Assembly (NCBI GenBank): GCA_001824915.1
Contig: MHTS01000027.1
Coordinates: forward strand, 1 to 53,359
Direction: 5' to 3'
Source of the DNA: Candidatus Wildermuthbacteria bacterium RIFCSPHIGHO2_01_FULL_48_27b
GTDB taxonomy: Bacteria; Patescibacteriota; Minisyncoccia; Minisyncoccales; UBA10102
Length of the DNA stretch: 53,359 bases
A program made the translations under genes and the position numbers. Numbering within the stretch: position 1 is the first letter of the stretch; every line of letters begins with the position of its first letter. Positions 3,964-48,870 of the stretch are shown in pieces. Below the pieces are notes generated by a model. It did no database searches. It was not told the origin of the DNA and worked only from the letters and a program-made list of their open reading frames with translations.

Positions 3964-3993
3964 TTACTAAACAACCGGATGGACAAAAGTAAT

Positions 3994-4158
3994 TCAGGAA
4001 ATAATCTGACCGGCGGCGGCGCGCGCCAGCATTTGCCGAATTCTCTTCAGCTCATCCACTTCGGCCGGAGAGAGATAACGCTCCCCCTGTATCTGGACAA
4101 GCTCGTCAAGCCTGTCCTCGATTCTCCCGACTGCGTTTGTATCGTTTACAGAGTTCAC
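3994..4158 (-). CDS. small GC-rich hypothetical protein (54 aa)
   Basis: A GTG start at 4158 is preceded by CAGGAGGGGTTCT (SD). The protein reads VNSVNDTNAVGRIEDRLDELVQIQGERYLSPAEVDELKRIRQMLARAAAGQIIS. The 118-aa ORF in the track is an upstream extension through the leader and terminator region. Confidence 0.45.
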   Translation of the reverse strand: MNSVNDTNAVGRIEDRLDELVQIQGERYLSPAEVDELKRIRQMLARAAAGQIIS

Positions 4159-4242
4159 AGAACCCCTCCTGATATATGCTCTGCGCTGTTGGTGTTCAGC
4201 GCATCGAGCGGATAACACTTGTATTACCCATTCGATGCACTT

Positions 4243-4271
4243 AACAAAAGCGGCCTCCTTTAGGAGACCGC
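4243..4271 (-). terminator. attenuator terminator in the leader of the 54-aa gene
   Basis: Minus-strand RNA reads GCGGUCUCC-UAAA-GGAGGCCGC followed by UUUUGUU. The upstream GGGAGGCC (about 4310-4317) can pair with GGUCUCC as an alternative structure. Confidence 0.55.
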
Positions 4272-4300
4272 CGGTTAAAGAATTTCGAAAATGTTTATCT

Positions 4301-4372
4301 TTAGCAAAAGGCCTCCCGTTTCGTGGGGTTAATAATGCTAATAATTTCAATTGCCAAAGATGCCTTCTGCAT
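4301..4372 (-). CDS. candidate leader peptide, Ile-rich (MQKASLAIEIISIINPTKREAFC)
   Basis: 23-codon ORF starting 12 nt after a -10 box, so nearly leaderless. Five of seven consecutive codons are Ile (ATT). It sits directly upstream of a terminator/antiterminator arrangement. Confidence 0.35.
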   Translation of the reverse strand: MQKASLAIEIISIINPTKREAFC

Positions 4373-4384
4373 ACTAATAAAGAT

Positions 4385-4416
4385 ATGATATCAAGATAAA
4401 ATATATTGTCAACCCC
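4385..4416 (-). promoter_or_regulatory. sigma70-type promoter GGGGTTGACA-16-TATCAT
   Basis: Read on the minus strand. It shares the G-tract plus TTGACA form seen at 428-440, 5338-5348, 8375-8384 and 17105-17114. Confidence 0.6.
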
Positions 4417-4427
4417 GAGATTGAGGG

Positions 4428-4503
4428 TGGTGAGGCGAGTCGGATTCGAACCGACACCTACGGCCCCTCAAGCCGTCGCTCGTGCCAAACGAGCTATCGC
4501 CTC
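4428..4503 (-). tRNA. tRNA with anticodon GAG (Leu by anticodon) but a class I body with a 4-nt variable loop; CCA encoded
   Basis: Hand-folded cloverleaf: GAGGCGA-TA-GCTC-GTTTGGCAC-GAGC-G-ACGGC-TTGAGGG-GCCGT-AGGT-GTCGG-TTCGAAT-CCGAC-TCGCCTC-A-CCA. It has the T-loop TTCGAAT, GG in the D-loop, G37 and A73. Position 14 is G, which is unusual. Confidence 0.8.
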
Positions 4504-4517
4504 ACCTTTTAGCAAAG

Positions 4518-4772
4518 CTACCCTTGGACCTTAACGGGTAGCTTGTTGAGGGCTTGGACACAGGCGTCAACGACGCGACATACGCGCTCCCGATACTGGA
4601 GCACAGCATCTAGTTCAGGAACTGTCTCTCCCTGCGCTATCGTCAGAGTAATGGTAGACAGAGGATCTTCAGCCAGATCTCCGGGAGTTCGCGCCAGCAC
4701 GGCAGTCGCCGTGGGAACCTCCCCGATCTTAGCAGCCACGTCGAGCCTAACAACTCCCCACTGGTCCGACAT
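4518..4772 (-). CDS. small GC-rich hypothetical protein (84 aa)
   Basis: ATG 4772 is preceded by GAGGGAGGGATTTT (strong SD). The protein reads MSDQWGVVRLDVAAKIGEVPTATAVLARTPGDLAEDPLSTITLTIAQGETVPELDAVLQYRERVCRVVDACVQALNKLPVKVQG. No recognisable family. Confidence 0.5.
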   Translation of the reverse strand: MSDQWGVVRLDVAAKIGEVPTATAVLARTPGDLAEDPLSTITLTIAQGETVPELDAVLQYRERVCRVVDACVQALNKLPVKVQG

Positions 4773-4790
4773 AAAATCCCTCCCTCGAAT

Positions 4791-5143
4791 GTGCTTGCGC
4801 CTTGAGCGCATTAAGGATTCGCAGCTAGATTTGCGAATCCACTGATAAGCTCAACTACTGCTAAATGATGACTCCCTCAGGAACATCGCGTGAGCAACGT
4901 CCTGGGGGCATTGGGGAGTATTAGGCTATGGAAACTCCGCGCAGGCGCAGCGCTTCTCTGTGTCTTCCTCTCTACAAGTAAGGTGCTAGAGAGCAGAGGA
5001 GAGGGCATGGATAACCCAGCTCCTCTGCTCCCTTATGAACACTTCCCCCTCAGATGTTCGCCAAGGGACGGTGTTCTTTTCGCAAGCCCATGTTTCTGGC
5101 CTGCAAATTATCCTAAAGTTTTTAAGGACAATTTCCAGCCCGG
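4791..5143. ncRNA. GC-rich highly structured non-coding region (unclassified RNA or long 5' leader of the 84-aa gene)
   Basis: No protein-like ORF on either strand. Many perfect helices are present, for example GAGCAGAGGAG/CTCCTCTGCTC (11 bp), CTCTCTA/TAGAGAG, GAACAC/GTGTTC, GGATTCGCA/TGCGAATCC and GGAGT/ACTCC. Confidence 0.35.
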
Positions 5144-5176
5144 AAAACAAAGAACCTCCCTTTGACTGGGAGGTTC
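5144..5176 (-). terminator. rho-independent terminator after the 33-aa ORF
   Basis: Minus strand: GAACCTCCC-AGTCAAA-GGGAGGTTC followed by TTTGTTTT. Confidence 0.7.
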
Positions 5177-5199
5177 GGTGAAATATCGAAGTTCTTATT

Positions 5200-5301
5200 T
5201 TACAAATTTCTTCCAGCCAAATTAAGGGGTTTCGTAATACCCAACAAGACGACCAAGACAATCATGATATTCTGGATTTGGTTGGCTAAATTCTGTCGCA
5301 T
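5200..5301 (-). CDS. candidate 33-aa hydrophobic peptide (MRQNLANQIQNIMIVLVVLLGITKPLNLAGRNL): leader peptide or small membrane peptide
   Basis: The ATG lies 13 nt after the -10 of a GGGGGTTGACA-17-TATATT promoter (5315-5348). The core IMIVLVVLLGI is almost entirely Ile/Val/Leu. A terminator follows. Confidence 0.3.
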   Translation of the reverse strand: MRQNLANQIQNIMIVLVVLLGITKPLNLAGRNL

Positions 5302-5314
5302 AAATCTTTGTTTG

Positions 5315-5348
5315 AATATACACGACCCAAAGCATGCTGTCAACCCCC
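5315..5348 (-). promoter_or_regulatory. sigma70-type promoter GGGGGTTGACA-17-TATATT
   Basis: Consensus -35 and near-consensus -10 with a 17-nt spacer, read on the minus strand. Confidence 0.65.
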
Positions 5349-5407
5349 ACAAAAATGCGCTCCTCAGGAGAAGAGCGCAACTTATCACAATTCTCAATGA
5401 ACCAAGC

Positions 5408-5599
5408 TCATCGAGTCTTCCATGTCCGCCAGAAGAGGTCCACAAGCCCCTTGATAATCAAGGTAAACATAGATCCGAACGCAAGAATTAATCCAATCAA
5501 ATAGATCTCGCGAACACCAGAGAACCCGCCTATCAAGGAAAGAACCATGCCCGTGAATGTTCCGATAAAGAGCGACCACTCTACTGCATTCTTTTTCAT
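5408..5599 (-). CDS. small two-helix membrane protein (63 aa)
   Basis: ATG 5599 is preceded by GGAGGGCGTGAG. The protein reads MKKNAVEWSLFIGTFTGMVLSLIGGFSGVREIYLIGLILAFGSMFTLIIKGLVDLFWRTWKTR. A hairpin plus T-run lies at 5350-5378. Confidence 0.5.
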   Translation of the reverse strand: MKKNAVEWSLFIGTFTGMVLSLIGGFSGVREIYLIGLILAFGSMFTLIIKGLVDLFWRTWKTR

Positions 5600-5738
5600 C
5601 TCACGCCCTCCATGCCGACATTTTCTATCTAAAGCATACAACTCTTATATTAAACAGTCCAGCTAAGCATAATTTCATCGACCTAATAATGCTATAGCAA
5701 GATTAAGTCGATAGTTTTTATCCTGAAAGGTAAGGTGG

Positions 5739-5784
5739 TTAGAGCTGGGCTAGGACGGTCTTTAGAGCTGGACTAGGGCGGTCT
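5739..5784. repeat. two tandem 23-nt direct repeats
   Basis: TTAGAGCTGGGCTAGGACGGTCT then TTAGAGCTGGACTAGGGCGGTCT (21/23 identical). They are followed by TAGCCCAGCC, the inverse of GCTGGGCT, and by a GGGGGGTTGACA box at 5799-5810. Confidence 0.7.
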
Positions 5785-5816
5785 TAGCCCAGCCAAGCTG
5801 TCAACCCCCCTATCAA

Positions 5817-5852
5817 TAAAAACGGGCGAGGACTCCTTTGGGAGCCTCGCCC
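5817..5852 (-). terminator. rho-independent terminator after DAHP synthase
   Basis: Minus strand: GGGCGAGGCTCC-CAAA-GGAGTCCTCGCCC followed by GTTTTTAT. Confidence 0.75.
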
Positions 5853-5890
5853 ATGCAATACAAGGTGCAATAATAAGGATGCAGAAATGT

Positions 5891-6937
5891 CTAGACGACG
5901 GCCTGCGCTGCAGGCACCTCGTCTGGCATGCGGCGGCCCAGGGCGCCGGCGACGGCGCGGACGCCCTTCATCAGATCGTTGAAGTTCTCGAACGTGAGCG
6001 ACTGCGCGCCGTCGCTCCACGCCGTGTCCGGGTTCGGGTGGACCTCAATGATCAGGCCGTGCGCGCCCGCCGCCACCGCAGCCAGGGCCATTGGCTTCAC
6101 CAGGTACCACTTCCCCGTCCCGTGGCTCGGGTCCGCGATGACCGGCAGGTGGCTCAGCTTCTTGATCACCGGGATCGCCGTCAGGTCCAGCGTGTTGCGC
6201 GTGCCCGTCTCGAAGGTACGGATGCCGCGCTCGCAGAGGATGACGTTGGGGTTGCCGCCCGCCAGGATGTACTCCGCACACAGCAGCCACTCCTCGTACG
6301 TCGTGGCGAAGCCGCGCTTGAGCAGCACTGGGCGCTGCACCTTGCCCACCCGATCCAGCAGTGGGTAGTTCTGGATGTTCCGCGCGCCGATCTGCAGGAT
6401 GTCGGCGTACTCCGCGACGGTCTCGACCTCCTCCGTGGACATCACCTCGGTGATGATCGGCAGCCCGGTCTCCTCGCGCGCCTTGGCCAGCATCCTCAGG
6501 CCGGTCACGCCATGGCCCCGGAAGGAGTACGGCGATGTCCGCGGCTTGTACGCCCCGCCACGCATGATCATCGCGCCCGCCGCCTTGATCGCCTTGGCCG
6601 TGGTGATAACCTGCTCCTCCGACTCCACGGCGCACGGCCCGGCCATCACGACCACTTGGTCTGACCCGATGGCCACGTTGCCGACCCTGACGATAGTGCT
6701 CTCCGGCTTGAACTCCCGGCTGCCGAGTTTGTACTGCTTGGTAACCCGCAGCACCTCGCTGACTCCACGCAAGAGCTCAAGCTCATCCTTGAGCTCCGGC
6801 ACGATGCGTCCCTCGACGCCGATGATCGTGCGCTCCACGCCGACACTGATGTGAGGCTTATAACCTCGCCCGTCGATGTATGCCGCCACACACTCGATAT
6901 CCTTCTTGGTTGAATCCTGCTTCATCACCACGATCAT
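5891..6937 (-). CDS. aroF: 3-deoxy-7-phosphoheptulonate (DAHP) synthase, class I-beta, with N-terminal ferredoxin-like regulatory domain
   Basis: 348 aa. Motifs: [59 protein letters not shown] and PVIADPSHG. The N-terminal 70 aa resemble the Thermotoga-type FL regulatory domain. Strongly GC-rich, with a GAAGGAG SD. Confidence 0.9.
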
Positions 6938-7017
6938 CGGCTGTCTCCTTCTTCTCTGGCTCTATGTTTAGTGCCAGTTTCGAAAGTCAATACAAATTCA
7001 CTCTCGAAATTGGCATT

Positions 7018-7047
7018 AAAAAACGAAAGCCAGCCTCGTCGGCTGGG
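7018..7047 (-). terminator. attenuator terminator in the DAHP synthase leader
   Basis: Minus-strand RNA reads CCAGCC-GACGA-GGCUGG followed by CUUUCGUUUUUU. AUCGUCGGC inside the leader ORF (plus strand 7111-7119) is complementary to GCCGACGA, which forms the 5' arm and loop of the terminator. Confidence 0.6.
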
Positions 7048-7087
7048 AATCTAGTATCTTTTGCTTATTGTTTTTCTTTCTCGTTAC

Positions 7088-7171
7088 CTATTTTTGGATA
7101 CTAAAATTATGCCGACGATTTTGGCTAGTAAAAGTAAAATACCAAAAGGAATATCTCAACTGTAAACTCAT
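7088..7171 (-). CDS. candidate leader peptide rich in all three aromatic residues (MSLQLRYSFWYFTFTSQNRRHNFSIQK)
   Basis: 27-codon ORF whose ATG lies 7 nt after a TAAGAA(T) -10 box, so effectively leaderless. Six of eight consecutive residues are Tyr/Phe/Trp (YSFWYFTF). A terminator lies about 40 nt after its stop. Confidence 0.55.
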   Translation of the reverse strand: MSLQLRYSFWYFTFTSQNRRHNFSIQK

Positions 7172-7178
7172 GGTTTTA

Positions 7179-7207
7179 TTCTTATACCTTTCAAAGCAAG
7201 TTGTCAA
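7179..7207 (-). promoter_or_regulatory. promoter TTGACA-17-TAAGAA for the DAHP synthase leader
   Basis: Read on the minus strand, immediately after the pheA hairpin. An alternative -10, TATAAG, would give a 15-nt spacer. Confidence 0.45.
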
Positions 7208-7216
7208 ATAGATTGG

Positions 7217-7254
7217 GGAGGGAGCGCGGATCTTTCGATCTTCGCGCTCCCTCC
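7217..7254 (-). terminator. 12-bp GC-rich hairpin after pheA (terminator-like, weak U tract)
   Basis: GGAGGGAGCGCG...CGCGCTCCCTCC, 11 nt after the pheA stop. Confidence 0.45.
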
Positions 7255-7265
7255 TTTATTGAAGG

Positions 7266-8099
7266 CTAAGCCTGCTCGCGCCACTGCGGGTAAGACCCAA
7301 ACACCTTGAGGCGGGAGGTGCAGCGCCGTGCCGCCACCAATGCATCCTTCAGCTCTAAGTCTTCCCGATGTGCCTCAACATCCACCAAGAAAACATACTG
7401 ACCCAGCGCTGTCTTGGCAGGGCGAGACTCCATCCTGGAAAGGTTTAGGCCTCGCGCCGCAAAGATGGCATAGATGGTGAGCAGGGCACCTGGCTTGTCT
7501 TTGAATGTCTCAAAGGCAAGCGAAGTCTTGTCGCAGCCCGTGGGCCGCGCGCTTCGGCGCCCGACCACCCAGAACCTAGTGCTATTCCTCTGTCTGTCCT
7601 GGACGTTCTCCTGCAGGATTACAGCTCCTTCTTGGGCGGCTGCCTTCCCCGCAATGGCCACGGCAGGAACATCGGACTCCAACATTTGGATGACCGCTCC
7701 TGCGGTGGAGTCCGTAGCAATCTGCTTTGCCTTTGGGAACAGCGCGTGGATGTTTTTTGCGCACTGCCCCAGACCCTTGGGATGGGAAAACACAACCTGC
7801 ACGTCCTCTAGGACGGTCCCATGACGCCCCCACAGACACTGGCTGATATTCATGACAACCTCGCCGCACACCCGCACTCTGCGGGCATCATGGATAAGGT
7901 AATCAAGAACATCGGTCACGGGACCATCAATGGAGTTCTCGACGGCCACAACTCCCAGCGAGACCTCGTTTTTCTCCACAGCCTCAAGCACGTGAAGATG
8001 CGAGGGATATGGGACATGCGGACCCTCTGGCAACCAGGTCTTGGCCGCCTCATGGCCGAAGGTACCCACAGGACCTAGGAACCCGATTTGCTTAGGCAT
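7266..8099 (-). CDS. pheA: prephenate dehydratase (monofunctional PDT + ACT domain)
   Basis: 277 aa. Motifs: IGFLGPVGTFGHEAA, VAVENSIDGPV, TRFWVVG and the ACT-domain ESRP motif (LSRMESRPAK). GAGGAGGAG SD. GC-rich. Confidence 0.9.
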   Translation of the reverse strand: MPKQIGFLGPVGTFGHEAAKTWLPEGPHVPYPSHLHVLEAVEKNEVSLGVVAVENSIDGPVTDVLDYLIHDARRVRVCGEVVMNISQCLWGRHGTVLEDVQVVFSHPKGLGQCAKNIHALFPKAKQIATDSTAGAVIQMLESDVPAVAIAGKAAAQEGAVILQENVQDRQRNSTRFWVVGRRSARPTGCDKTSLAFETFKDKPGALLTIYAIFAARGLNLSRMESRPAKTALGQYVFLVDVEAHREDLELKDALVAARRCTSRLKVFGSYPQWREQA

Positions 8100-8195
8100 T
8101 GCATCTCCTCCTCGCTACGCTCACTCCTGTTGAGCGCAGCATTAGAAAATCATTCTGTAATTTCCTTGTGCCGTGCTCAATATTTTCACAACCAA

Positions 8196-8220
8196 CAAAA
8201 AACCCTCCCGGCTGGGAGGA
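8196..8220 (-). terminator. attenuator terminator in the pheA leader
   Basis: Minus-strand RNA reads CCUCCC-AGCC-GGGAGG followed by GUUUUUUG, about 95 nt before the pheA start. UGGGAG at the 3' end of the leader ORF (plus strand 8271-8277) is complementary to CUCCCA in the 5' arm. Confidence 0.7.
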
Positions 8221-8259
8221 TTTTCGTTTCGGATTTAAGCTTGTTCTCCTTTGCTTTTC

Positions 8260-8337
8260 CTACTTTAAATCTCCCAACCTTAGTGAAGGGGTAAAGAAAG
8301 CAAAAAAGAAAAAGTCTTTCGATGCGCTATATTTCAT
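8260..8337 (-). CDS. Phe-rich leader peptide (MKYSASKDFFFFAFFTPSLRLGDLK), pheL-like
   Basis: 25-codon ORF 14 nt after the -10 box. Six Phe occur in seven consecutive codons (FFFFAFF), closely resembling E. coli PheL [15 protein letters not shown]. A terminator follows and then pheA. Confidence 0.7.
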   Translation of the reverse strand: MKYSASKDFFFFAFFTPSLRLGDLK

Positions 8338-8351
8338 ATCTGTGTAGTTGC

Positions 8352-8384
8352 AATATACGCCAAGCCTCATTTTGTGTCAACCCC
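8352..8384 (-). promoter_or_regulatory. promoter GGGGTTGACA-17-TATATT for the pheA leader
   Basis: Consensus -35 and near-consensus -10 with a 17-nt spacer, read on the minus strand. Confidence 0.7.
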
Positions 8385-8403
8385 AGGACACAGCTCAGGG
8401 CTC

Positions 8404-9522
8404 TTAGGGAATAATCCATTTATCTTTTGGGAAAGTCGTAAAATTTTCAAATCCATCTTTGGTTACAAGAATATCATCTTCAATGCGGATGCCGCCAATT
8501 TCGGGGTAATATAGTCCCGGCTCAATAGTAATCACGTTCCCCGGCACAAGCTCATATTCTACCCTTTCTCCTAGCCGCGGCTCTTCGTGTACCTCCAACC
8601 CTACGCCGTGGCCGGTATTATGAATAAATCCCTTATCTCCCACATCATACCCTGCGTCCAACAATATCTCTGCGCATATCTTATGGATGTCACTTGCTTT
8701 CTTGCCAGGAGCTACGGCTTCTATACCTTCTTTCTGGGCCTTTCGCACAGCCTCATACATTTTTCTAAGCTCTTCTGTCGGAGTTCCTTTTACAAAGGTT
8801 CTTGTGACATCTGCGAAATACCTTGTGGCGCGGCTCTTAGGAAAAATGTCGCAAACAATTGGCTCATGCGGCTTAATTGCCCCCTTCCCCGGGTGGTGAG
8901 GAATCGCGGTCTGCAATCCAGAGGAAATAATTATTCCTTCTTCGCTTATCATATCTTCTTCAAACAATAACCGCTCAACTTCTTTCTTTAAAAACTCGCT
9001 TGTGAGAATCGCGCCGCTATAGAAAATACTGTTTCCTTTGATGACAGACTCTCGTAAAATCTTTTCGATGAGAGCAAATGCCTTTTCTGTTTTTTGGACA
9101 CTCGAGCGAATCGCCTCTGCCTCGTCGGGCGTTTTACTGGCCCGCTCCGGGTACAAATGGATCTGGGGAACAAGTTTCACTCCTTTGGAACGCAGAAAGT
9201 CAGCCAGCAAAAGCGGAAAATTGTTGGGCACGGTGATTATCTCTCCTAAAAGCTCATACTTTTGCAGCAAATACCATGCTAAATTTTGAAGGTTATCTTT
9301 GCTTAGACTTAGTTTTGCGGCCTCCTGCACAAGAGGGTTAAGAAGTTGAACTTCAATGTTTTGATTTTTATTCCTTTCCTGGAACAGGCCGAACTCACGA
9401 TGATCCAGAAAAACATATTTCTTCACGCCCAAATCAATCAGAAAAAAAGGATCCACAATATCCATCTTTACCGCATAAAATACGTCGCGGTTTTTCGTGT
9501 TGTCGTAAATGAGTTTTGCCAT
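8404..9522 (-). CDS. M24 family Xaa-Pro aminopeptidase/dipeptidase
   Basis: HNTGHGVGLEVHEEP and NVITIEPGLYYPEIGGIRIEDD motifs. TAATG overlap with the metG stop. Confidence 0.85.
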   Translation of the reverse strand: MAKLIYDNTKNRDVFYAVKMDIVDPFFLIDLGVKKYVFLDHREFGLFQERNKNQNIEVQLLNPLVQEAAKLSLSKDNLQNLAWYLLQKYELLGEIITVPNNFPLLLADFLRSKGVKLVPQIHLYPERASKTPDEAEAIRSSVQKTEKAFALIEKILRESVIKGNSIFYSGAILTSEFLKKEVERLLFEEDMISEEGIIISSGLQTAIPHHPGKGAIKPHEPIVCDIFPKSRATRYFADVTRTFVKGTPTEELRKMYEAVRKAQKEGIEAVAPGKKASDIHKICAEILLDAGYDVGDKGFIHNTGHGVGLEVHEEPRLGERVEYELVPGNVITIEPGLYYPEIGGIRIEDDILVTKDGFENFTTFPKDKWIIP

Positions 9523-17075: not shown

Positions 17076-17106
17076 TATTTTATGCTAGAGAATTTATAAG
17101 AAAGTG

Positions 17107-23072: not shown

Positions 23073-23074
23073 GG

Positions 23075-34126: not shown

Positions 34127-34191
34127 TATTGTTTCAAAGATACAGCCCACGTGAATCAAATAGCGTGAATCAAATAACACGTAAATCAAAC

Positions 34192-34223: not shown

Positions 34224-34304
34224 ATCAAATGAACAACTTCCAGATACTATGTCCCGAGCGACACCGCATTGCGGCGCGCGTTTCAAAGAACCTACATATC
34301 CTTC

Positions 34305-34796: not shown

Positions 34797-34862
34797 CCTG
34801 CCCTCCACAAACAGATTTCCTACTCGTAACCCATCTTATAATTTATCCTGCGCGAAAGTCAA

Positions 34863-36642: not shown

Positions 36643-37089
36643 ATGGCGGTATATGCGGAAAATAGGAAAGCGCATTTTAACTACGAAATCTTGGAAACAT
36701 TCAAGGCGGGATTAGTATTGCAGGGACAGGAGGTAAAATCGATAAAATCGGGGAGAATTCAGATTGCGGGATCATACGTGGTTACCCGCGGAGAAGAGCT
36801 GTTCCTGCGCGGGGCAACCATTTCTCCTTATCAGCCCGCGAACGCCCCCGCGGGCTACAATCCAGAGCGCGATAGAAAACTCCTGTTACACAAAGAGGAA
36901 ATCCGATATATTCTTGGAAAATCCAAAGAAAGAGGCTTGACTTTAGTGCCCTTAAAGGTGTATAATGACAAACGCAATCTCAAACTTGAGTTTGGCTTAG
37001 CTCGAGGGAAAAAGACGAGAGACAAAAGAGAAGATATCAGAAAACGGGAAGCCAAACGCGAGATTGAACGCGCCTTAAAATACGAGTGA
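36643..37089 (+). CDS. smpB: SsrA-binding protein
   Basis: NRKAHFNYEILETFKAGLVLQGQEVKSIK... 148 aa. tmRNA lies immediately downstream. Confidence 0.92.
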   Translation: MAVYAENRKAHFNYEILETFKAGLVLQGQEVKSIKSGRIQIAGSYVVTRGEELFLRGATISPYQPANAPAGYNPERDRKLLLHKEEIRYILGKSKERGLTLVPLKVYNDKRNLKLEFGLARGKKTRDKREDIRKREAKREIERALKYE

Positions 37090-37093
37090 ATAT

Positions 37094-37466
37094 GGGGATG
37101 TCCAGCTTTGACAGCGAGCCAAAGCAATTCTCGCGATGGGAGTACGGCCTCCTTAAAACCGAGGCAATACAACTGCCAACATTTTTAAGCCGGCACAACC
37201 GGCTCTTGCCTACGCATAACTAGTCCGCCAACCGGCGGACGAATCGCAGGCCATTCGCTCTTTGACTCTCGATAAAAGAAGCGGGTGTCAACCATCGAGA
37301 TAGATAGCTTTTTCGAAGGTCCGGGAGCTATTGATTTTTAAGGACCATCAAAGAGAAAGTGGGTTCGTCCAGTTCTTGCACTCTCTCTTTCAAAAAACTG
37401 GACTATCATCGTAGATAGAATTTCCTCGTCTCGCTGGACGCGGGTTCGACCCCGCCATCTCCACCA
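37094..37466 (+). ncRNA. ssrA: transfer-messenger RNA (tmRNA)
   Basis: 5' GGGGATGTCCAGCTTTGACAGCGAGCC and 3' GGACGCGGGTTCGACCCCGCCATCTCCACCA, with the G3:U70 alanine identity pair. A putative tag frame GCA CAA CCG GCT CTT GCC TAC GCA TAA (..AQPALAYA-stop) lies at 37193-37219. Confidence 0.9.
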
Positions 37467-42817: not shown

Positions 42818-44050
42818 TTATACGCTCCTTGTAAACCGGTCCAGCCTCGGAGCAAAGAGGCGCGGAAGCTCTGCCTCTTGCCCCACAATCATCTGCGCGA
42901 GAGCATGAGCCGCCCCGGGAATTCCGGGCAGACCATGCCCGCCGAATCCGCAGATTACCCACTGGTTTCCAATCAGCGGAACGCGCCCGACAAATGGGAA
43001 TCCGTCGGGCGACTCCCACATGATCCCTGTCCATTCGTGAGAGTGGGATAGACTCTCGGGGATGCCAAACATTTGCTGGGCGTATGCTTGCAACGCCATA
43101 CTGATGGCGCTGTTCACCACGGTATCGTCTTCCTCACCTTCTTCGCGGGAAGGAGAGACCGATCGCATGCCGCCCAACAGCAGTTCTTGGCACCTTCGAA
43201 GGCCATAGACAAGGCCGTCGAAAGTACCAAAACCGATCTCTTGAGCAACCTGTTCTGGAAAAGCCACAATCTGCCCACGGATACATAAGAACCCCACCCT
43301 TAGAGCAGTGGCAGCTCCTCCCAGCAGATGTGGCCTGTTTGTGGCATGCACCACGATCTGTGCCCTCACCCTCCCCTTGCCGGTTCGGACCACGAAACCG
43401 CCGTTCTGCGGGACCACGTCATACGCATTGGTCCTCACGCGAACTTGGACGCCCAAATCTTGGGCTGCTCGCGCGAGCCCCAGCAGAAGACGCACTGGAT
43501 TCACCTGCCCGGCCTCGGGTTTGAACAACCCACCCGCAAAGCCCGAGAAGCCGAGCACTTCACATTGACGGGCATCCCACAGCTCCGGGGGGTGCCCGAT
43601 TGAAACAAGTAAGGCTTGGCGTTCCCTCAACAGACGAATCTGCTCGTCATCTGCCGCAAGGAACATGTATCCAGTTCGGCGGAAACCGCACTGGATGTTG
43701 AACCTTTCGATCACCTCTTCGAGTAGCCCCACAGAAGCATACTCGAAATCCAGAAGGGTTTTAGCCATATCTTGGCCATGTCGACGAAATATATCCTCAA
43801 TGGGTATGTTCCCTGGATTCACGTGGCCTTGGTTGCGGCCGCTCGCTCCTTCTCCAAGACCTCCCTTCTCGAGCAACATGACGTTCGTGGTGCCGAGCTC
43901 AGCGAGAAAAAGAGCCGTCATCACACCTGCCAGTCCTCCCCCCAGAACCGCAACTTGAGTTTCGGCGCCATCGATATTGTCCGAGGGAAAATCATCCCTT
44001 CGCAGTCTCCACCAAATCGGGATTTGCTGAGGAACTCCCTGGATAACCAT
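42818..44050 (-). CDS. FAD-dependent oxidoreductase (DAO/glycine-oxidase-like family), GC-rich
   Basis: VAVLGGGLAGVMTALFLAELG dinucleotide-binding motif. AGGAGGGAGAA SD before ATG 44050. A TTGATT-17-TATAAA promoter lies about 100 nt upstream. Confidence 0.85.
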   Translation of the reverse strand: MVIQGVPQQIPIWWRLRRDDFPSDNIDGAETQVAVLGGGLAGVMTALFLAELGTTNVMLLEKGGLGEGASGRNQGHVNPGNIPIEDIFRRHGQDMAKTLLDFEYASVGLLEEVIERFNIQCGFRRTGYMFLAADDEQIRLLRERQALLVSIGHPPELWDARQCEVLGFSGFAGGLFKPEAGQVNPVRLLLGLARAAQDLGVQVRVRTNAYDVVPQNGGFVVRTGKGRVRAQIVVHATNRPHLLGGAATALRVGFLCIRGQIVAFPEQVAQEIGFGTFDGLVYGLRRCQELLLGGMRSVSPSREEGEEDDTVVNSAISMALQAYAQQMFGIPESLSHSHEWTGIMWESPDGFPFVGRVPLIGNQWVICGFGGHGLPGIPGAAHALAQMIVGQEAELPRLFAPRLDRFTRSV

Positions 44051-44190: not shown

Positions 44191-45561
44191 CTACCCACCT
44201 ATTTGGGGAAGAGCCTGAAAATGCGGATGAAACTTCGAGAAAATACCTTCCGTATTTAAGCATTCAAAAAATCCTTTTATTTCATCTCGCGTTCCCAGAG
44301 CAAGGTAATATTCAAACGTACGCACGAGACGATCTGTACACAACAAAGCTTTTTGCAGATTCAGGCGGAGCCCCCCTTCTGTCTCCTCGAGACCTCCGCC
44401 CCCCAGAAGCGCGTCGAGAAAGGCGGCATATCCATAAAGCAAATTTTCAAAACGTCGGCGTTTGTCAAACGCGGCAAGATAGTATAATGCCTGGCATATT
44501 TCGGCAAGCACCATTGCTTCGAGATCTTTTTCGGTAATAGCATTTTTTAAATAGAGGAAACCTGCTGATTTTATCGTGAGGATATCTCCGTATACTTCGT
44601 CGATATACGCGAAGTATTCCTGAAGGCGAATCACAGCGTCGTCATAGCGCACGAGAGAACGGCGCATTTCATCAATAACAGAAATCCGCACCAACGCGTC
44701 CTCCATTTGAGAAACACTGCGACCTTCCTGTGTTTTTTTGTCAAAAGCACGCTGGAAAATTGGCTGCATCCACTTTTCCACGCGCAATTTTGCCATTGAG
44801 AGAAAGACTGTTGACATTGTCCCGTGCTTTTTTATCAGCTTAATATCCGCGGAAGAAGGCAGGTTATTGGACATAAATAGATAGTCGGCATCAAGACCGG
44901 CGAGCAACAGGGTGTCTTCCGCGCGCACGCGGATCTGCGACACCGTAGTCTTTTTCGCTCCGGGCAAGAACGTAGGAATACTGGTCAGAATAAGAGTTCT
45001 CATCCGAGAAACCTCTGCCATACGATCTTCATTTAACACTCCTATCCACGCGGTATACGCGCGTTTTTGATGAAAATGCCGGTCAAGAAAACGATCAAAG
45101 GGACCTAGAACGCAACCAATTTTTGAAGTGTTTGTTTTGAGCCACAAAATATTGCTTTGATCGAAGTTGTCTTTCAGCAGATCCTGCGCGCGGGCTACAA
45201 GGTATGCCTTAAACGCTTTGTCGTCGCTCAAGGCGGCCGCCTCTTTGAGAAGTTTCGCAACGCGCGTGAGCTCTTTCCTAAACTTTTTGCTATAAGGAAC
45301 TGCCACAAGCTTCCCCGCCTTGTTTCTCACCACAAATGTATACGGGCTCAAAATCGAGGGGTTTTTCTTCGCTGCTTTTTGGATCTCCTCTCGAGTGGCG
45401 TCGGGCGGATAAAAATTCGCTCCCGGGTACTTGGAGTTTTTTTGCGCCTCGTACAGTGGCACGATAAGCTTTGCTGCGGCAGTAAGCTTTTCAACAACTT
45501 TCTTTTCTCCCGCGGATAATCCTGAAGGGCCTGGTTTAAATATTTGGAAGGAGGAAGACAT
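44191..45561 (-). CDS. hypothetical protein (456 aa)
   Basis: Long clean AT-rich host-like ORF. No catalytic motif recognised by eye. Confidence 0.7.
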   Translation of the reverse strand: MSSSFQIFKPGPSGLSAGEKKVVEKLTAAAKLIVPLYEAQKNSKYPGANFYPPDATREEIQKAAKKNPSILSPYTFVVRNKAGKLVAVPYSKKFRKELTRVAKLLKEAAALSDDKAFKAYLVARAQDLLKDNFDQSNILWLKTNTSKIGCVLGPFDRFLDRHFHQKRAYTAWIGVLNEDRMAEVSRMRTLILTSIPTFLPGAKKTTVSQIRVRAEDTLLLAGLDADYLFMSNNLPSSADIKLIKKHGTMSTVFLSMAKLRVEKWMQPIFQRAFDKKTQEGRSVSQMEDALVRISVIDEMRRSLVRYDDAVIRLQEYFAYIDEVYGDILTIKSAGFLYLKNAITEKDLEAMVLAEICQALYYLAAFDKRRRFENLLYGYAAFLDALLGGGGLEETEGGLRLNLQKALLCTDRLVRTFEYYLALGTRDEIKGFFECLNTEGIFSKFHPHFQALPQIGG

Positions 45562-45574
45562 AAAAAATGCGCTA

Positions 45575-46051
45575 CTAGTATTGAACTTTTAATACCTTGC
45601 ACACATGATTCACCAGCTCGGTTTTCACCTCTACAACATCTCCCACTATTGCGCCCAGCAGCCTCGCTCCGAGAGGAGATTGGTTGGAAATTTTCTTTTG
45701 TACGGGATCTGCTTCAAGCGTACCCACAATAGTGAACTCATCTATTTCCCCTCCGAGATCAACCGTAACGGTTGCTCCAAGCCACACCTTCTGTTTTTCC
45801 TTCCCTTTTGGCGCACTAATAAGTTCCGCGTTCTGCAGAATGTTTTCGTGCTCTGCGATTTTCGCGTCAAGCAAACTTATATCCTCCTGGAAGGCAAGAT
45901 ATTCAGGATTCGCCTCTTCTGAGTGCAGCAGGTTAGGCGTTTCTCCCATTGTCTTTTGGCGTTTAAAATCCCGCAGCCTTTCATATTCTGCCTTTACTTT
46001 TTCTAATCCCTCTTTGGTTACGTAGAATTTGTCGAGCATCATAGTTGTCAT
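45575..46051 (-). CDS. greA: transcription elongation factor GreA
   Basis: VTKEGLEKVKAEYERL coiled-coil N-terminus and a C-terminal FKBP-like domain (ISNQSPLGARLLGAIVGDVVEV). Confidence 0.9.
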   Translation of the reverse strand: MTTMMLDKFYVTKEGLEKVKAEYERLRDFKRQKTMGETPNLLHSEEANPEYLAFQEDISLLDAKIAEHENILQNAELISAPKGKEKQKVWLGATVTVDLGGEIDEFTIVGTLEADPVQKKISNQSPLGARLLGAIVGDVVEVKTELVNHVCKVLKVQY

Positions 46052-46065
46052 AGGAGTTTTTGATG

Positions 46066-46143
46066 AAAAAATCTGGCTTTTGGCTGCCAGATTTATTGAT
46101 TCGTTTCGATATGTTGGTGGATCACCGAGTCAATAAATCTGGC
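46066..46143 (-). promoter_or_regulatory. greA leader switch: an 18-bp hairpin mutually exclusive with a short terminator
   Basis: Minus-strand RNA reads GCCAGAUUUAUUGACUCG...CGAAUCAAUAAAUCUGGC-AGCCAAAA-GCCAG-AUUUUUU. The CUGGC segment is shared between the long hairpin and the CUGGC/GCCAG terminator. Promoter TTGACA-16-TATAAT at 46227-46254. Confidence 0.5.
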
Positions 46144-46322
46144 CGCTAGTTTGGAAAATGGCTTTTACCAAGGGGATATATGAAAATTGAAGCGTTGTAT
46201 CAATACTTTTCATAGATGCATAACCTATTATAGAGAACCAAGCGAGGTTGTCAATACCTTCTTGTTTTTTTAAGTCTTTAGCGTAAAATACTTTAAATCT
46301 TAAATCATTTAGGAGGGATAAA

Positions 46323-47186
46323 TTAAAATTTTGGGGGAATAGTTTTTGGCAAAATGGGAACTTCTCCCGTAGAAACGACTGCTTGCCTTACTCCGGGCAA
46401 AGCCCGTATTTCATCCTCCACAAATGCCTCTATGTTTTCCAGGTTTCGCGCGAGCAACCCCACGGTAAGATTGTAGGCTCCCGTAATCTTTGCCAAATGG
46501 TACACCTCCTGGCACTTCTCGAGCTTCTCAATTAATTGTTCAAGAGTTTTCCTGTCTGCCTCAACATTGATTTGGGCCGCTATAGTATAAAATTGATCGG
46601 CCTGCAAAGAAGCATATACCCGTATAAGTTTTTCTTTCAGAAGTTTGTCGACTCTATTCTTTACTGCCACAGAGCTCAAGCGCAACTTCTTGGCAACTTC
46701 AGTAAACGACTCCCTGCCGTTTTGCGCCAAGTACTGAATGAGCTTCAAATCTATGGCATCAAGCTCTTCCAACCCCCAAATTGCCTCTGCGGAATATTGT
46801 GCTACGGCAAAATCAGCCATTCCTGTCCGGTCAAAAAAGCAAGCGAACTTAATATCTTTGATATTCCACTCCTTCTTTTTCATTCGTACAGCCTCCATGG
46901 AACGTTTGTACGCCTTTCCTGTTACGATATCGTTGTTTACAATGAGCACCTTTCTTCCGCGCACCAATTTTTCGTCGAGATCTGCCCCGTCATCCTCCAT
47001 TGTAGCAAGAACCACATTGGTCTTTTTCCTTTTCTTTAACCATGCGACAAGCGCCTCGCCATAAAATATGCCCTCGGGCCGCAAACAAAGAATGCAAACA
47101 TCATCCTTCCCTAAATAGGCTTCAATGTCCTTTCCAACCGTATCAACAAACTTTTTGAGCGTTTCAAATTCTAAAAGATTGACCAT
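46323..47186 (-). CDS. phosphoribosyltransferase-like domain fused to an Lrp/AsnC-family transcriptional regulator
   Basis: N half has a PRPP-loop-like KVLIVNNDIVTGKAY. C half has the Lrp HTH (IDLKLIQYLAQNGRESFTEVAKKLRLSSVAVKNRVDKL) plus a RAM-type domain. Start chosen at MVNLLEF (47186). Confidence 0.75.
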   Translation of the reverse strand: MVNLLEFETLKKFVDTVGKDIEAYLGKDDVCILCLRPEGIFYGEALVAWLKKRKKTNVVLATMEDDGADLDEKLVRGRKVLIVNNDIVTGKAYKRSMEAVRMKKKEWNIKDIKFACFFDRTGMADFAVAQYSAEAIWGLEELDAIDLKLIQYLAQNGRESFTEVAKKLRLSSVAVKNRVDKLLKEKLIRVYASLQADQFYTIAAQINVEADRKTLEQLIEKLEKCQEVYHLAKITGAYNLTVGLLARNLENIEAFVEDEIRALPGVRQAVVSTGEVPILPKTIPPKF

Positions 47187-47308
47187 ACGAAAGATATAGT
47201 AGAGTTTCTTTACGTGAATTATACACAATCCCCGGCAAAAGAAAAGTATTGACAGAAATAGACAAACAATGTTCGCTTAAGTCAGTACTTACCTCGAGGA
47301 GCGTTACT

Positions 47309-48103
47309 ATGGTAATCCTGTCAACCGATCCATCCATTCGTTACATCCTCGTGGACTTAGACGGTACCACTTTCCCAACCGAGGGCCCTCTGCCGGAAGG
47401 TTTCCACGAAAATCTTAGCACTTTCTCTGGGCTCATCGAGAGAGCGAATAGGGGAGAATTTCCGAAGATCGGCTTCTGTACGGGTCGAGAGCTAAATTAC
47501 GTCGAGGGAGCAACAAGAACTCTAACCCTACCTGATGGCTGGTCAGTGCTAGAAAATGGGCTGTTTATTTACAACCTGGCAACAGGAGTACGGATAAACC
47601 ACCCGCTCTTGACCCCAGAAGCTAAGACTGTGTTTCAGAACATCCGGGATAGAATCTGGGTCGTTACCTACCGCTTTCCCGATCTGGAAGCATACCTCAA
47701 AAAAGAAGTACATATCGCGCTGGAGCGGCGCAATCGTTGGATTAACCTTGCAGAGTATGTCGCTCCGATCCAAGAAATGTTCATCGAATTCAAGAAGCAG
47801 ATGGACGTGGTCTGCTCGGGCCACGCCATCGACTTGCTCGTTAATGGCATCAACAAGGGCTCGGGATTACAGGAGCTATGCGATTGGAGCGGCGTATCTC
47901 CCAAAGAAGTCCTTATCATTGGAGATTCTCCCAACGACTTTCCCGCGATGGATCTTGCAGGATCTATAGGATGTCCCTCCAACGCCGACGAAAAGTGCAA
48001 GGAGTTTGTACGCAACAAGGGAGGACACGTTTCACTCCTCCCCTATGTAGTGGGAGTGGTGGACATCATCAAACACTACCTCCCAAACGCTGGACAGGCC
48101 TAA
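47309..48103 (+). CDS. HAD-IIB (Cof-type) phosphatase
   Basis: YILVDLDGT (motif I) and LIIGDSPNDFPAM (motif IV). GAGGAG SD before ATG 47309. Moderately GC-rich. Confidence 0.8.
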   Translation: MVILSTDPSIRYILVDLDGTTFPTEGPLPEGFHENLSTFSGLIERANRGEFPKIGFCTGRELNYVEGATRTLTLPDGWSVLENGLFIYNLATGVRINHPLLTPEAKTVFQNIRDRIWVVTYRFPDLEAYLKKEVHIALERRNRWINLAEYVAPIQEMFIEFKKQMDVVCSGHAIDLLVNGINKGSGLQELCDWSGVSPKEVLIIGDSPNDFPAMDLAGSIGCPSNADEKCKEFVRNKGGHVSLLPYVVGVVDIIKHYLPNAGQA

Positions 48104-48233
48104 TCTAAGAGTCGGATATCCTCCGGCTCTTTCCATTTGCAAAGCTATTCTTTTTGTGTTAATGCTACAAATAAGAGAGCCACCTGCCCTTCCAAGGACA
48201 GGCAGAGCCTCCAGGCAAATTTGGGAGGGTAAG

Positions 48234-48836
48234 ATGTCAACGAATGAGAGGGTCGCAACCGTGCACCGTACGACTGGGGAAACGGACGTCAGCATCACGC
48301 TCAACCTGGACGGCTCTGGTCAGTACGAAGGCAAAACCGGACAGGGTTTCCTCGACCACATGCTTGCGCAGATCGCGCGCCACGGCATACTGGATATCAC
48401 TGTCGATGCGACCGGCGATAATACTGGTACCCACCACCTGGTGGAGGATGTCGCCATCGTCCTGGGTCAGGCGCTGCGCAAGGCCATCGGCGAGGGGGCC
48501 GGTATCACCCGGATGGGCGATGCGACTGTCCCGCTCGACGAAGCTCTGGCTCGATGCGCTGTCGATCTGTCGGGCCGTCCCTATGCGGTCATCAACACGG
48601 ACCTCCATGGTCAGGACGTCGAAGGACTGCCAGGAGATATGCTCGACCATTTCTTGGAGTCCTTCGCGCTGGAGGCGCGTATCGCCCTGCATTGCCGTGT
48701 ACTGTACGGACGCAACGCCCATCACAAGGCAGAAGCGACGTTCAAAGCGTTGGCGCGGGCGCTACGAACCGCCGTCACTATGGACCCGCGCCGCCAAGAC
48801 ACGGTACCAAGTACGAAAGAAACCATAGCGGGGTAG
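48234..48836 (+). CDS. hisB: imidazoleglycerol-phosphate dehydratase
   Basis: RTTGETDVSITLNLDG, GFLDHML, GDNTGTHHLVEDVAI and GRNAHHKAEATFKALARAL. GGGAGGG SD before ATG 48234. GC-rich. Confidence 0.9.
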   Translation: MSTNERVATVHRTTGETDVSITLNLDGSGQYEGKTGQGFLDHMLAQIARHGILDITVDATGDNTGTHHLVEDVAIVLGQALRKAIGEGAGITRMGDATVPLDEALARCAVDLSGRPYAVINTDLHGQDVEGLPGDMLDHFLESFALEARIALHCRVLYGRNAHHKAEATFKALARALRTAVTMDPRRQDTVPSTKETIAG

Positions 48837-48839
48837 TAA

Positions 48840-48870
48840 GGGTCAGGATTTCTCCTGACCCTCTTATTTT
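48840..48870 (+). terminator. rho-independent terminator after hisB
   Basis: GGGTCAGGA-TTTC-TCCTGACCC followed by TCTTATTTT. Confidence 0.7.

Follow-up and report, generated by a model that had tools for sequence, protein, structure and literature searches.

Recurrent gene displacement within conserved expression slots as the probable origin of GC-rich single-gene islands in a Wildermuthbacteria genome

How do single genes of GC-rich composition come to stand, sharply cut off at both ends, between the AT-rich promoters and leaders of their host? This question is raised by a 53,359-nucleotide (nt) stretch of a Candidatus Wildermuthbacteria genome (RIFCSPHIGHO2_01_FULL_48_27b; assembly GCA_001824915.1, contig MHTS01000027.1), the metagenome-assembled genome (MAG) of an ultra-small groundwater bacterium from the Candidate Phyla Radiation (CPR). 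The whole stretch is referred to below as the window, and the genes in question are mainly those for DAHP synthase (DAHPS), prephenate dehydratase (PDT, the product of pheA), imidazoleglycerol-phosphate dehydratase (IGPD, the product of hisB) and an FAD-dependent oxidoreductase of the DAO family. An initial annotation had listed nine such islands and suggested that promoterless, mRNA-sized foreign segments were repeatedly placed under resident control elements, conceivably by way of RNA or cDNA. The evidence assembled here supports the core of that idea for four of the islands and points to recurrent in-situ xenologous gene displacement, in which the coding sequence (CDS) alone is exchanged within conserved promoter-leader-terminator expression slots, a reading to which a probability of roughly 0.72 is assigned.

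Islands, backbone and the occupants of the slots

The flagged open reading frames (ORFs) were scored for GC and for GC at third codon positions (GC3) against 38 background ORFs of the window (GC mean 0.448, sd 0.031; GC3 mean 0.468, sd 0.049), the window as a whole having a GC of 0.469 and its intergenic DNA one of 0.438. Six ORFs are clear outliers and atypical of the host (z 3.9-6.7), and for these the composition shifts that had been noticed by eye persist when quantified:

5891-6937, minus strand: DAHPS CDS, occupant of the aromatic slot (Pfam FXD and DAHP_synth_1); GC 0.655, z 6.7; GC3 0.897, z 8.7
48234-48836, plus strand: hisB CDS (Pfam IGPD); GC 0.610, z 5.3
28360-29016, minus strand: target gene of a diversity-generating retroelement (DGR); GC 0.598, z 4.9
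7266-8099, minus strand: PDT/pheA CDS, occupant of the Phe slot (Pfam PDT and ACT); GC 0.582, z 4.3
4518-4772, minus strand: orf84; GC 0.580, z 4.3
42818-44050, minus strand: CDS of the DAO-family oxidoreductase, a hypervariable occupant (Pfam and NCBIfam); GC 0.569, z 3.9

The DAHPS, pheA and FAD oxidoreductase islands were thus correctly recognized as GC-rich, and so was the DGR target, which is part of a canonical DGR. The other members of the list of nine are marginal or trivial. There is only a mild rise in orf291 (z 2.7) and the adjoining histidine-phosphatase fragments (z 1.7-2.6), in a Cys-rich 167-amino-acid (aa) ORF (z 2.5) and in the HAD gene upstream of hisB (z 1.9), so that the proposed joint HAD-hisB island comes down to hisB. 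The segment around 3965-4215 drops out, its gene, orf118, being no outlier (z 1.4), and of the segment 4428-5160 only orf84 stands, since the GC richness of the tRNA-Leu gene in it is a trivial property of tRNA and no anomaly.

The borders of the islands are sharp and coincide with CDS ends, as had been claimed: in 90-nt windows GC falls from 0.72 inside to 0.48 outside at one end of DAHPS and from 0.50 to 0.40 at the other, and from 0.63 to 0.42 at the border of hisB. Proteins of the contig match Wildermuthbacteria entries at NCBI exactly. The DAHPS protein with identical neighbours was recovered on 14 contigs (ENA, JGI, Logan and NCBI assemblies) from different samples. Because the same junctions recur on 14 contigs from independent assemblies, chimeric assembly is excluded and the islands are genuine. 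Selection for high expression was considered as a source of the high GC3 and rejected: GC3 is at background level in the genes for ribosomal protein L20 and IF3.

What relatives hold at these positions can be read against a conserved backbone. Its order was found by a scan with methionyl-tRNA synthetase (MetRS), one genome per species (best match 57%): the genes for a class-II aminoacyl-tRNA synthetase, M16, AI-2E, RsmI, MetRS and TatD keep their order across CPR relatives. In several of these, fewer than 15 nt separate MetRS from TatD, and in the window the gap is 5.7 kb and holds M24, pheA, DAHPS, orf63, an RNA leader, orf84, tRNA-Leu and orf118. Relatives are designated here by contig labels beginning with L. 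Three of them, L088, L089 and L090, are the window's own population (99.6-99.96% nt identity) and uninformative on divergence. A sister species, found by scanning JGI metagenomes with a 22-mer from the leader, is close to the window in MetRS (94%) and M24 (97% nt); its evidence for the DAHPS and Phe slots is carried by L086 (1.6 kb), L099 (3 kb) and L100 (5.9 kb). At the other end of the window, L105 (a 239-kb contig) is collinear with 34.8-53 kb (~20 kb), with backbone genes mostly 81-98% aa identical and an AsnC-like gene at 0.9-1.0 nt identity, and L102 is collinear with 44191-50451 over 6.2 kb, with backbone at 84-92% nt. Backbone genes between close relatives are in all 86-97% nt identical. 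The scaffolds that frame the occupants, together with the gene preceding hisB, are as follows:

6938-7265, minus strand: aromatic-slot scaffold (pheA terminator, promoter, leader ORF, antiterminator/terminator, Shine-Dalgarno sequence (SD))
8100-8403, minus strand: Phe-slot scaffold (promoter, leader ORF, antiterminator/terminator, SD)
47309-48103, plus strand: HAD-IIB phosphatase gene upstream of hisB (Pfam and NCBIfam)
48104-48233, plus strand: hisB-slot 5' scaffold (HAD terminator, promoter TTGCAA...TAATGC, 5' untranslated region (UTR))

The occupant of the aromatic slot in the window is a DAHPS whose best named homolog is a Rokubacteria-labelled protein (82% aa), followed by Chloroflexi/Dehalococcoidia proteins at ~70%; no CPR name was found among the named matches in the top 120, most of these matches carrying no name. 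The Rokubacteria-labelled gene belongs to an operon of trpA, chorismate mutase and DAHPS, and its CDS (0.67 GC) is ~80% nt identical to that of the window. These matches suggest a foreign, Rokubacteria-like origin of DAHPS, the taxon names being MAG bin labels. The gene is absent from L095/L096, L097, L098 and L104, which keep pheA at the same locus. In L095 the aromatic scaffold, from the pheA terminator through promoter, leader peptide and terminator to the SD, is 82% nt identical to that of the window and the 3' UTR/terminator of the slot is homologous (0.73 nt identity), and the CDS between them is a 63-aa ORF. The sister species occurs in two variants: one (L099) has a 71-aa ORF with the same leader, SD and 3' UTR/terminator, and the other (L100, continuing into L086) a DAHPS 84% aa identical to that of the window, the leaders of the DAHPS-bearing and the ORF-bearing variants being 98.8% identical. 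Between the window and L086 the flanks are 93-97% and the aromatic scaffold 93% nt identical, against 83% for the DAHPS CDS. Homology at this slot breaks off within the SD, ~6 nt upstream of the ATG, and is regained 7-25 nt past the stop codon; the conserved sequence 3' of the slot reads TATTGCACCTTGTATTGCATGGGCGAGG... in part. A further DAHPS allele, P0002 (ENA contig, 2161 nt), equals the window's over ~256 residues and the L086 allele over its C-terminal ~95.

The Phe slot is a more complex case. The PDT of the window forms a clade with those of other Wildermuthbacteria at 57-71% identity (next tier 48%), members of this Wildermuth type being 64-85% identical to each other and standing at the same locus in L095, L097, L098 and L104. 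The type is syntenic in other Wildermuthbacteria, where it diverges about as much as the backbone, and judged by the refuting condition of the initial annotation, pheA groups with the host lineage. A simple, recent and un-ameliorated horizontal gene transfer (HGT) of the window's pheA was rejected, since in four other Wildermuthbacteria the gene stands in the same context and is of about the same age as the backbone. The clade is shared at the locus, and GC3 of pheA is still 0.57-0.73 in lineages with saturated synonymous sites, so that recent import alone does not explain its GC excess. In the sister species (L100/L099), in contrast to its backbone, the same Phe leader (82.8% nt) precedes a PDT that shares only 38% identity with that of the window, and the L100 protein is ~40% identical to five Wildermuth-type PDTs from syntenic contigs. 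One junction of the swap is at the SD/ATG, and the other falls within the final ~12 codons (LGSY..W..QA*). The Phe scaffold is 88.7% nt identical between the window and L095, though backbone CDSs are only 56-65% identical; in L095 a PDT-like stub of 9 codons follows the leader SD, and 236 GC-rich nt then precede the PDT proper. In L029 a Phe-type leader and terminator are followed by an orphan ORF and no PDT. Two side observations concern the same region. A 120-nt tract of pheA (7525-7644, minus strand) is 93-97% identical to L095 10459-10578, in a PDT that is 70% identical overall and ~65% elsewhere, and looks like a short recombination tract. In L100, moreover, M24 and the Phe leader are separated by a 625-nt insert (L100 3837-4462) with a GC-rich 128-aa orphan ORF, which the window lacks.

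In the hisB slot three alleles share a conserved promoter and terminator. Homologs of the window's hisB are Chloroflexi/SAR202 types (60-66%), with one 73% match labelled Gottesmanbacteria, and the Gottesmanbacteria-labelled hisB contigs are collinear with 44191-50451 of the window. The L102 allele is 73% aa and 70.5% nt identical, has a GC3 of 0.93 and keeps the promoter to the -10 element, the stop codon and the terminator, and the IGPD of L105 is 30% identical. The conserved part of the slot's 5' scaffold reaches the -10 element in the comparison with L102 and the start codon in that with L105. Identity between the window and L105 collapses at 48211-48876 (hisB) and again at 44148-42739, the position of the DAO gene, whose product is 63% aa identical to its counterpart between flanking genes at 97-98% aa. 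The HAD-IIB gene is mostly backbone-like (89% aa to L105), and the low identity of its initial ~250 nt to L102 (46-66%) makes it partly mosaic. As a side observation, L101 is a mosaic that is 100% identical to the window over 51358-53359 and 82% over 48345-50340. It encodes a 676-aa ORF with an intein-splicing domain (L101 2034-4064, compared with 50701-50706 of the window), which the homolog in the window, orf421, lacks. L101 was deposited under a Gottesmanbacteria bin yet is collinear with the Wildermuthbacteria window, and is probably mis-binned.

The relative ages of occupants and backbone were compared at 4-fold degenerate sites of conserved residues, as the excess of third-base identity over the saturation expectation. 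Between the window and L102 this excess is 0.47-0.61 for the backbone and 0.06 for hisB. With L105 it is 0.65-0.98 for most of the backbone (0.48-0.57 for acylphosphatase and VIT1; 0.69 for HAD-IIB), 0.12 for DAO (0.74-0.78 for its flanking genes) and -0.12, that is, saturated, for IGPD. With L100/L086 it is 0.76-0.94 for the backbone and 0.38 for DAHPS, and between DAHPS and the Rokubacteria-labelled gene 0.12-0.14. Synonymous sites that are near saturation in the occupants and not in the backbone argue that the occupants predate the split of the host genomes by far and would have been imported or exchanged separately.

All four of the strong enzymatic GC islands (DAHPS, pheA, hisB and DAO) are hence replaced or deeply divergent in close relatives, and none of the ~20 backbone genes compared is hypervariable, all of them having at least 80% aa identity and unsaturated synonymous sites. 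Flanks and regulatory context are orthologous and collinear, and the occupants of the same function are non-orthologous, far beyond the divergence of the genomes. Synteny in relatives, which had been proposed as a check, shows other xenologs, divergent alleles or small unrelated ORFs in the same slots. Because relatives keep the promoter or leader and the terminator but differ in the CDS, the repeated placement of promoterless foreign coding segments under resident control is supported, for DAHPS, pheA, hisB and the FAD oxidoreductase only. The units are not mRNA-sized, as had been supposed; they are CDS-sized, because their borders fall at the SD or start codon and right after the stop codon, and the host leader and terminator stay in place.

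Control elements of the slots

The promoters of the window had been described as a host-specific form in which a G-tract precedes TTGACA. The exact 10-mer GGGGTTGACA occurs six times in the window, where ~0.1 copies are expected by chance, always on the minus strand and at intergenic positions or gene ends (428-437, 4407-4416, 5338-5347, 5799-5808, 8375-8384 and 17105-17114), several copies having a -10 element at 16-17 nt. The motif is thus real, but in relatives the corresponding pheA promoter does not have the G-tract conserved (GGGCATTGACA, CCTATTGACA), so that this part of the description does not extend to them. The copies each precede an accessory, non-backbone unit, namely the XFP-ACS block, the Phe leader, orf63, a branched-chain-type leader and orf118.

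The AT-rich leaders in front of pheA and DAHPS are more specific than the generic captured promoters of the initial annotation. In the Phe slot the promoter (GGGGTTGACA-17 nt-TATATT, 8384-8352, minus strand) is followed by a leader ORF (8260-8337, minus strand) that encodes MKYSASKDFFFFAFFTPSLRLGDLK, with six Phe in seven consecutive codons (FFFFAFF), by an antiterminator/terminator at 8225-8198, and by the SD and ATG ~100 nt beyond. The Rfam family Phe_leader (RF01859) matches 8194-8330 over model positions 1-125 of 125 with 40.5 bits (E 1.8e-4), which is below the gathering score of 55; the element is predicted to work like the Phe_leader type, membership of the curated family not being established. 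Phe-type leaders are kept in L095, L098, L104, L029 and L100. In the aromatic slot the promoter runs from TTGACA at 7207 to a -10 element at 7178 (minus strand), the leader ORF (7088-7171, minus strand) encodes MSLQLRYSFWYFTFTSQNRRHNFSIQK with the run YSFWYFTF upstream of DAHPS, and an antiterminator/terminator at 7046-7030 precedes the SD and ATG. The predicted antiterminator folds have energies of -29.7 (Phe) and -28.2 kcal/mol (aromatic; z -4.4), and both leaders allow the 5' arm of the terminator to be sequestered by pairing with the 3'-terminal part of the leader ORF, giving mutually exclusive predicted folds. The leaders use the host-style codons TTT and TAT; the DAHPS CDS has 0 TTT versus 6 TTC and 1 TAT versus 9 TAC. 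Given this anatomy, the AT-rich leaders are best described as predicted leader-peptide attenuators with an amino-acid specificity that suits the gene behind them, FFFFAFF for pheA and YSFWYFTF for DAHPS.

A search of 4400-8450 at a permissive threshold returned no Rfam family for the aromatic leader or for the "structured RNA" at ~4850-5150. The latter is part of a third attenuator-like unit:

4518-5301, minus strand: leader ORF, terminator, conserved RNA leader of ~300 nt and the GC-rich orf84

Its leader ORF (5200-5301, minus strand) encodes the Ile/Val/Leu-rich MRQNLANQIQNIMIVLVVLLGITKPLNLAGRNL and is followed by a terminator at 5176-5152 (minus strand). The unit is 93-95% nt identical to the distant relative L095 over 5249-5071, and in L095 (11590-12741) it runs on into a stand-alone ORF for a LeuA allosteric domain. 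Upstream of HAD/hisB there is no His-rich leader peptide; a divergent regulator of the AsnC/Lrp type adjoins the pair instead. A full-text literature search found no paper that links leader-peptide attenuation with Patescibacteria.

Competing explanations and the route of exchange

The mechanism proposed to account for these observations is that a conserved housekeeping backbone carries a few accessory expression slots, each a host-type, AT-rich scaffold of a sigma-70-like promoter, a 5' leader and an intrinsic terminator. The leaders of the pheA and DAHPS slots would sense Phe or aromatic amino acids by transcription attenuation, presumably working as in proteobacteria. The coding segment in a slot would give way, time after time, to homologs gained by HGT and in some cases to small ORFs unrelated to it, mostly from GC-rich Rokubacteria- or Chloroflexi-like aquifer bacteria, or from Wildermuthbacteria that had acquired them earlier. 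If the occupants are younger than the slots, or are continually re-imported, they would retain the GC and codon usage of their donors, and sharply bounded single-gene GC islands would result because the scaffolds retain the composition of the host. DNA may enter by natural transformation, as the general character of CPR genomes would allow, and may be integrated by short-homology or homology-facilitated illegitimate recombination at the SD, at conserved end codons or in the flanking scaffold, with selection then favouring those insertions that happen to enter an expressed slot. No integrase, recombinase or transposase was found in the 53 kb by Pfam search of the large ORFs called (a few small ones were left unscanned), and the island borders have no target-site duplications, inverted repeats or A-tails beyond chance. 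A phage vector was considered and rejected, as no relatives of DAHPS or hisB occur among IMG/VR viral contigs. Borders that lie inside the transcript and vary between pairs of alleles, with no integrase, fit recombination of DNA at short or partial homology, followed by selection for expression, and do not fit cDNA or site-specific cassettes.

Could each gene have been acquired only once, long ago, and then have diverged rapidly in place? The hisB genes of the window, of L102 and an unnamed ENA protein are indeed each other's closest group (73-75%, versus 60-66% to Chloroflexi), the DAHPS of the window and of L086 share both the slot and C-terminal codons, and the window's PDT type is common to Wildermuthbacteria at one locus. 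Such a history is nevertheless improbable, as it would have to produce occupants down to 30% (IGPD) and 38% (PDT) identity beside neighbours at 94-98%, with saturated synonymous sites next to unsaturated ones in adjacent genes; PDT and the IGPD of L105 already indicate that the occupants of sister genomes are not closest relatives. It also does not account for unrelated ORFs in the aromatic slot of some strains, and the GC3 of L102 hisB (0.93) exceeds that of the window, the opposite of shared amelioration. A more serious contender, held to be somewhat short of even odds, is that GC-rich imports are rare and that alleles are mostly shuffled among Wildermuthbacteria by homologous recombination, the scaffolds serving as portable homology arms. 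In distant comparisons scaffolds are 82-97% identical where backbone CDSs are 50-68%, and the 120-nt PDT tract, the hybrid DAHPS allele P0002 and the mosaic L101 are of the kind that shuffling would leave; moreover, most HGT detected in Patescibacteria came from other Patescibacteria (PMC12455944). Shuffling alone leaves the donor-like GC3 of 0.90-0.93 and the ~80% nt identity of DAHPS to the Rokubacteria-labelled gene unexplained, and it complements displacement by xenologs and does not exclude it.

The remaining alternatives concern how, or whether, foreign segments arrived. A reverse transcriptase (RT) is encoded in the window at 26541-27704 and the inserts lack promoters, which had suggested that foreign mRNAs were reverse-transcribed and integrated; this route is unsupported and scarcely credible, since the sole RT is that of a canonical DGR, which has bAvd and whose template and variable repeats differ by 21 adenine-specific changes, the borders have neither poly-A nor target-site duplications, and the foreign segments start at the SD or start codon and end no more than ~20 nt from the stop codon, within the transcript, with the host leader and terminator left in place. 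The cDNA of a donor mRNA would have brought donor UTRs and, for DAHPS, the neighbouring genes of its operon. A dedicated, integron-like system inserting ORFs site-specifically would suit single-gene, promoterless units with precise borders and the conserved sequence 3' of the aromatic slot. It is very unlikely, as the 53 kb hold neither a recognizable enzyme for it nor border repeats, the slots are dispersed with a promoter each and are not an array behind one Pc, a terminator hairpin accounts for the conserved 3' sequence, and break points vary (hisB at the -10 element in L102 and at the start codon in L105). That the islands are artefacts, CPR flanks having been joined to genes of GC-rich organisms by chimeric assembly or mis-binning, might be entertained for a metagenome-assembled source with GC-rich Rokubacteria and Chloroflexi homologs in the same samples. 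Its likelihood is close to nil: the 14 contigs with identical junctions come from different samples and assemblers, each junction sits precisely where a functional SD/start or stop/terminator lies, and the same architecture is found in MAGs of other studies on contigs of 121-239 kb.

Several points weigh against recurrent displacement within slots as set out above. For the DAHPS and Phe slots, the key observations on the sister species come from short contigs. Donor names are MAG bin labels, and among the four enzymes a donor is named for DAHPS alone. The clade of the window's PDT includes other Wildermuthbacteria that have it at this locus, and synonymous sites of the gene are as saturated as in the backbone. 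Scaffolds that outconserve every backbone CDS in distant comparison may themselves move between lineages, and P0002 could be a strain-level assembly chimera as well as a natural recombinant.

A broader proposition, which must be regarded as conjecture and at present as doubtful, is that such scaffolds are reusable slots throughout Wildermuthbacteria, perhaps throughout the CPR, in which a start- and stop-precise exchange of CDSs outpaces point divergence, the scaffolds being more conserved or more mobile than housekeeping genes: a cassette-like turnover that needs no integrase.

Neighbouring segments, significance and known systems

Some segments of the window lie outside the slots and are accounted for otherwise:

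26541-29016, minus strand: canonical DGR (RT, bAvd, template repeat (TR), target gene with variable repeat (VR))
26541-27704, minus strand: DGR RT (RVT_1)
27538-27921, plus strand: bAvd (domain match)
27930-28055, minus strand: TR, with 21 TR-adenine-to-any-base differences from the VR
28370-28495: VR, within the DGR target gene at 28360-29016, minus strand
22197-23665, minus strand: orf291 and a frameshifted histidine phosphatase, moderately GC-rich and resident
33509-34808, minus strand: PaaX-like regulator and Cys-rich 167-aa ORF, an insertion relative to L105
4428-4503, minus strand: tRNA-Leu(GAG) (ARAGORN and Rfam), resident and kept in L095

The DGR has the RT with Avd, an adenine-specific TR/VR pair and a VR at the 3' end of the target gene. 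No RT or Avd was called in the short IleRS-RecO stretch of L097, and in L029 this stretch is only ~20 nt. The mildly GC-rich block at 22197-23665 is resident: it is 93.1% nt identical to the sister species, equal to the flanking backbone. Its histidine phosphatase (23075-23665, minus strand) is split into ORFs of 76 and 101 aa and is intact, with 196 aa, in L091, L092 and L094, which suggests a frameshift or pseudogene. A phosphatase beside it has 167 aa in the window and 215 aa in the sister species, where a toxin-antitoxin pair of the ParE type, absent from the window, is also found. Because ArgRS and IleRS are adjacent in L105 (spacing ~40 nt), the PaaX-like gene (GC 0.389) and the Cys-rich ORF (GC 0.524, only moderately raised) are an insertion in the window. 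No significant Pfam or NCBIfam family was found for orf84, orf118, orf291, the Cys-rich 167-aa ORF, the DGR target, orf63 of L095, orf71 and orf110 of L099, orf117 of L029 or orf128 of L100.

Three further observations concern other parts of the window. XFP, ACS and an HTH gene sit between RsmI and MetRS in the window (12095-16821, minus strand; a phosphoketolase fused to a CoA-binding domain, an acetyl-CoA synthetase and the HTH gene, all of host-like GC), at a locus where the sister species has a phosphotransacetylase, a phosphoketolase and an NYN-domain gene instead (L091 8231-11427; L100 18-1167); the insert is thus variable. The isoleucyl-tRNA synthetase (29790-33401, minus strand; 1203 aa) has a complete His_Phos_1 domain inserted at aa 492-669, an architecture also called in L089, L097 and L105. 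The gene for SmpB is followed directly by that for tmRNA (36643-37466, plus strand; Rfam 110.7 bits), an ordinary arrangement that is kept in L105.

CPR bacteria are regarded as dependent on partners and as lacking most pathways of amino-acid biosynthesis. In the window, a CPR lineage appears to keep predicted amino-acid-sensing attenuators that drive single biosynthetic enzymes re-imported from GC-rich neighbours, and lone genes for DAHPS, PDT and IGPD raise the question of what role partial pathways play in reduced genomes. GC islands were a reliable marker of hypervariable loci here (4/4, against 0/~20 backbone genes). If this is general, the occupants of slots could be used to trace DNA exchange in the subsurface, to nominate hosts of episymbionts and to measure gene turnover against point divergence; if the scaffold-slot reading is true, GC-rich Rokubacteria- and Chloroflexi-like donors could indicate the physical hosts or neighbours of these episymbionts. 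The slots would also provide a natural example of regulatory scaffolds that outlive the genes they control.

Several known systems resemble parts of this arrangement. Mosaic evolution of operons by HGT, with gene displacement in situ, was reportedly described by Omelchenko and colleagues in 2003. The likeness is that a distant homolog of the same function replaces a gene at a conserved position between orthologous neighbours (PDT 38%, IGPD 30%/73%, DAO 63%). Here, however, the unit is a monocistronic CDS inside a promoter-attenuator-terminator scaffold, with borders at the SD/start and the stop; displacement is repeated between genomes as close as sister species (backbone 86-97% nt), and 50 kb contain several such loci; and one slot also takes unrelated ORFs. 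Compositionally atypical acquired genes, genomic islands and their amelioration are familiar from the work of Lawrence and Ochman, and the deviating GC and codon usage, the empty sites in relatives and one cluster beside a tRNA gene fit that picture. In contrast to classical islands, single genes are involved, no integrase or direct repeats and no donor flanks were found, and the atypical composition of pheA persists across lineages with saturated synonymous sites. Integron cassettes are likewise promoterless single-ORF units expressed from a resident promoter, but the window has no IntI, no attC and no array, and its break points are variable.

The control elements resemble the E. coli pheL-pheA attenuator (RF01859) in having a short ORF with regulatory codons, a terminator and a predicted antiterminator upstream of the cognate gene. 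They differ in that the Rfam match is below the gathering score, the host belongs to the CPR, the regulated CDS is exchangeable, and one attenuator mixes Phe, Trp and Tyr codons before a DAHP synthase. Homology-facilitated illegitimate recombination in natural transformation is known from Acinetobacter and Streptococcus. By analogy, it would give one homologous anchor (the LGSY..W..QA codons of PDT, or the scaffold) and one micro-homologous junction (the SD), and the duplicated N-terminal PDT stub of L095 would fit such an event.

Single-gene transfers into aquifer Patescibacteria/CPR have been reported, a few amino-acid biosynthesis genes among them, with donors that were mostly other Patescibacteria and also included other phyla such as Methylomirabilota (PMC12455944; mSystems 2025). 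The available text of that study makes no mention of CDS-precise replacement under scaffolds, of attenuators or of repeated replacement at one locus, and its main text nowhere uses the word "promoter". What goes beyond the known kind in the window is hence the recurrent, CDS-precise replacement, the use of function-matched attenuators as its frame, and the GC islands that mark hypervariable loci.

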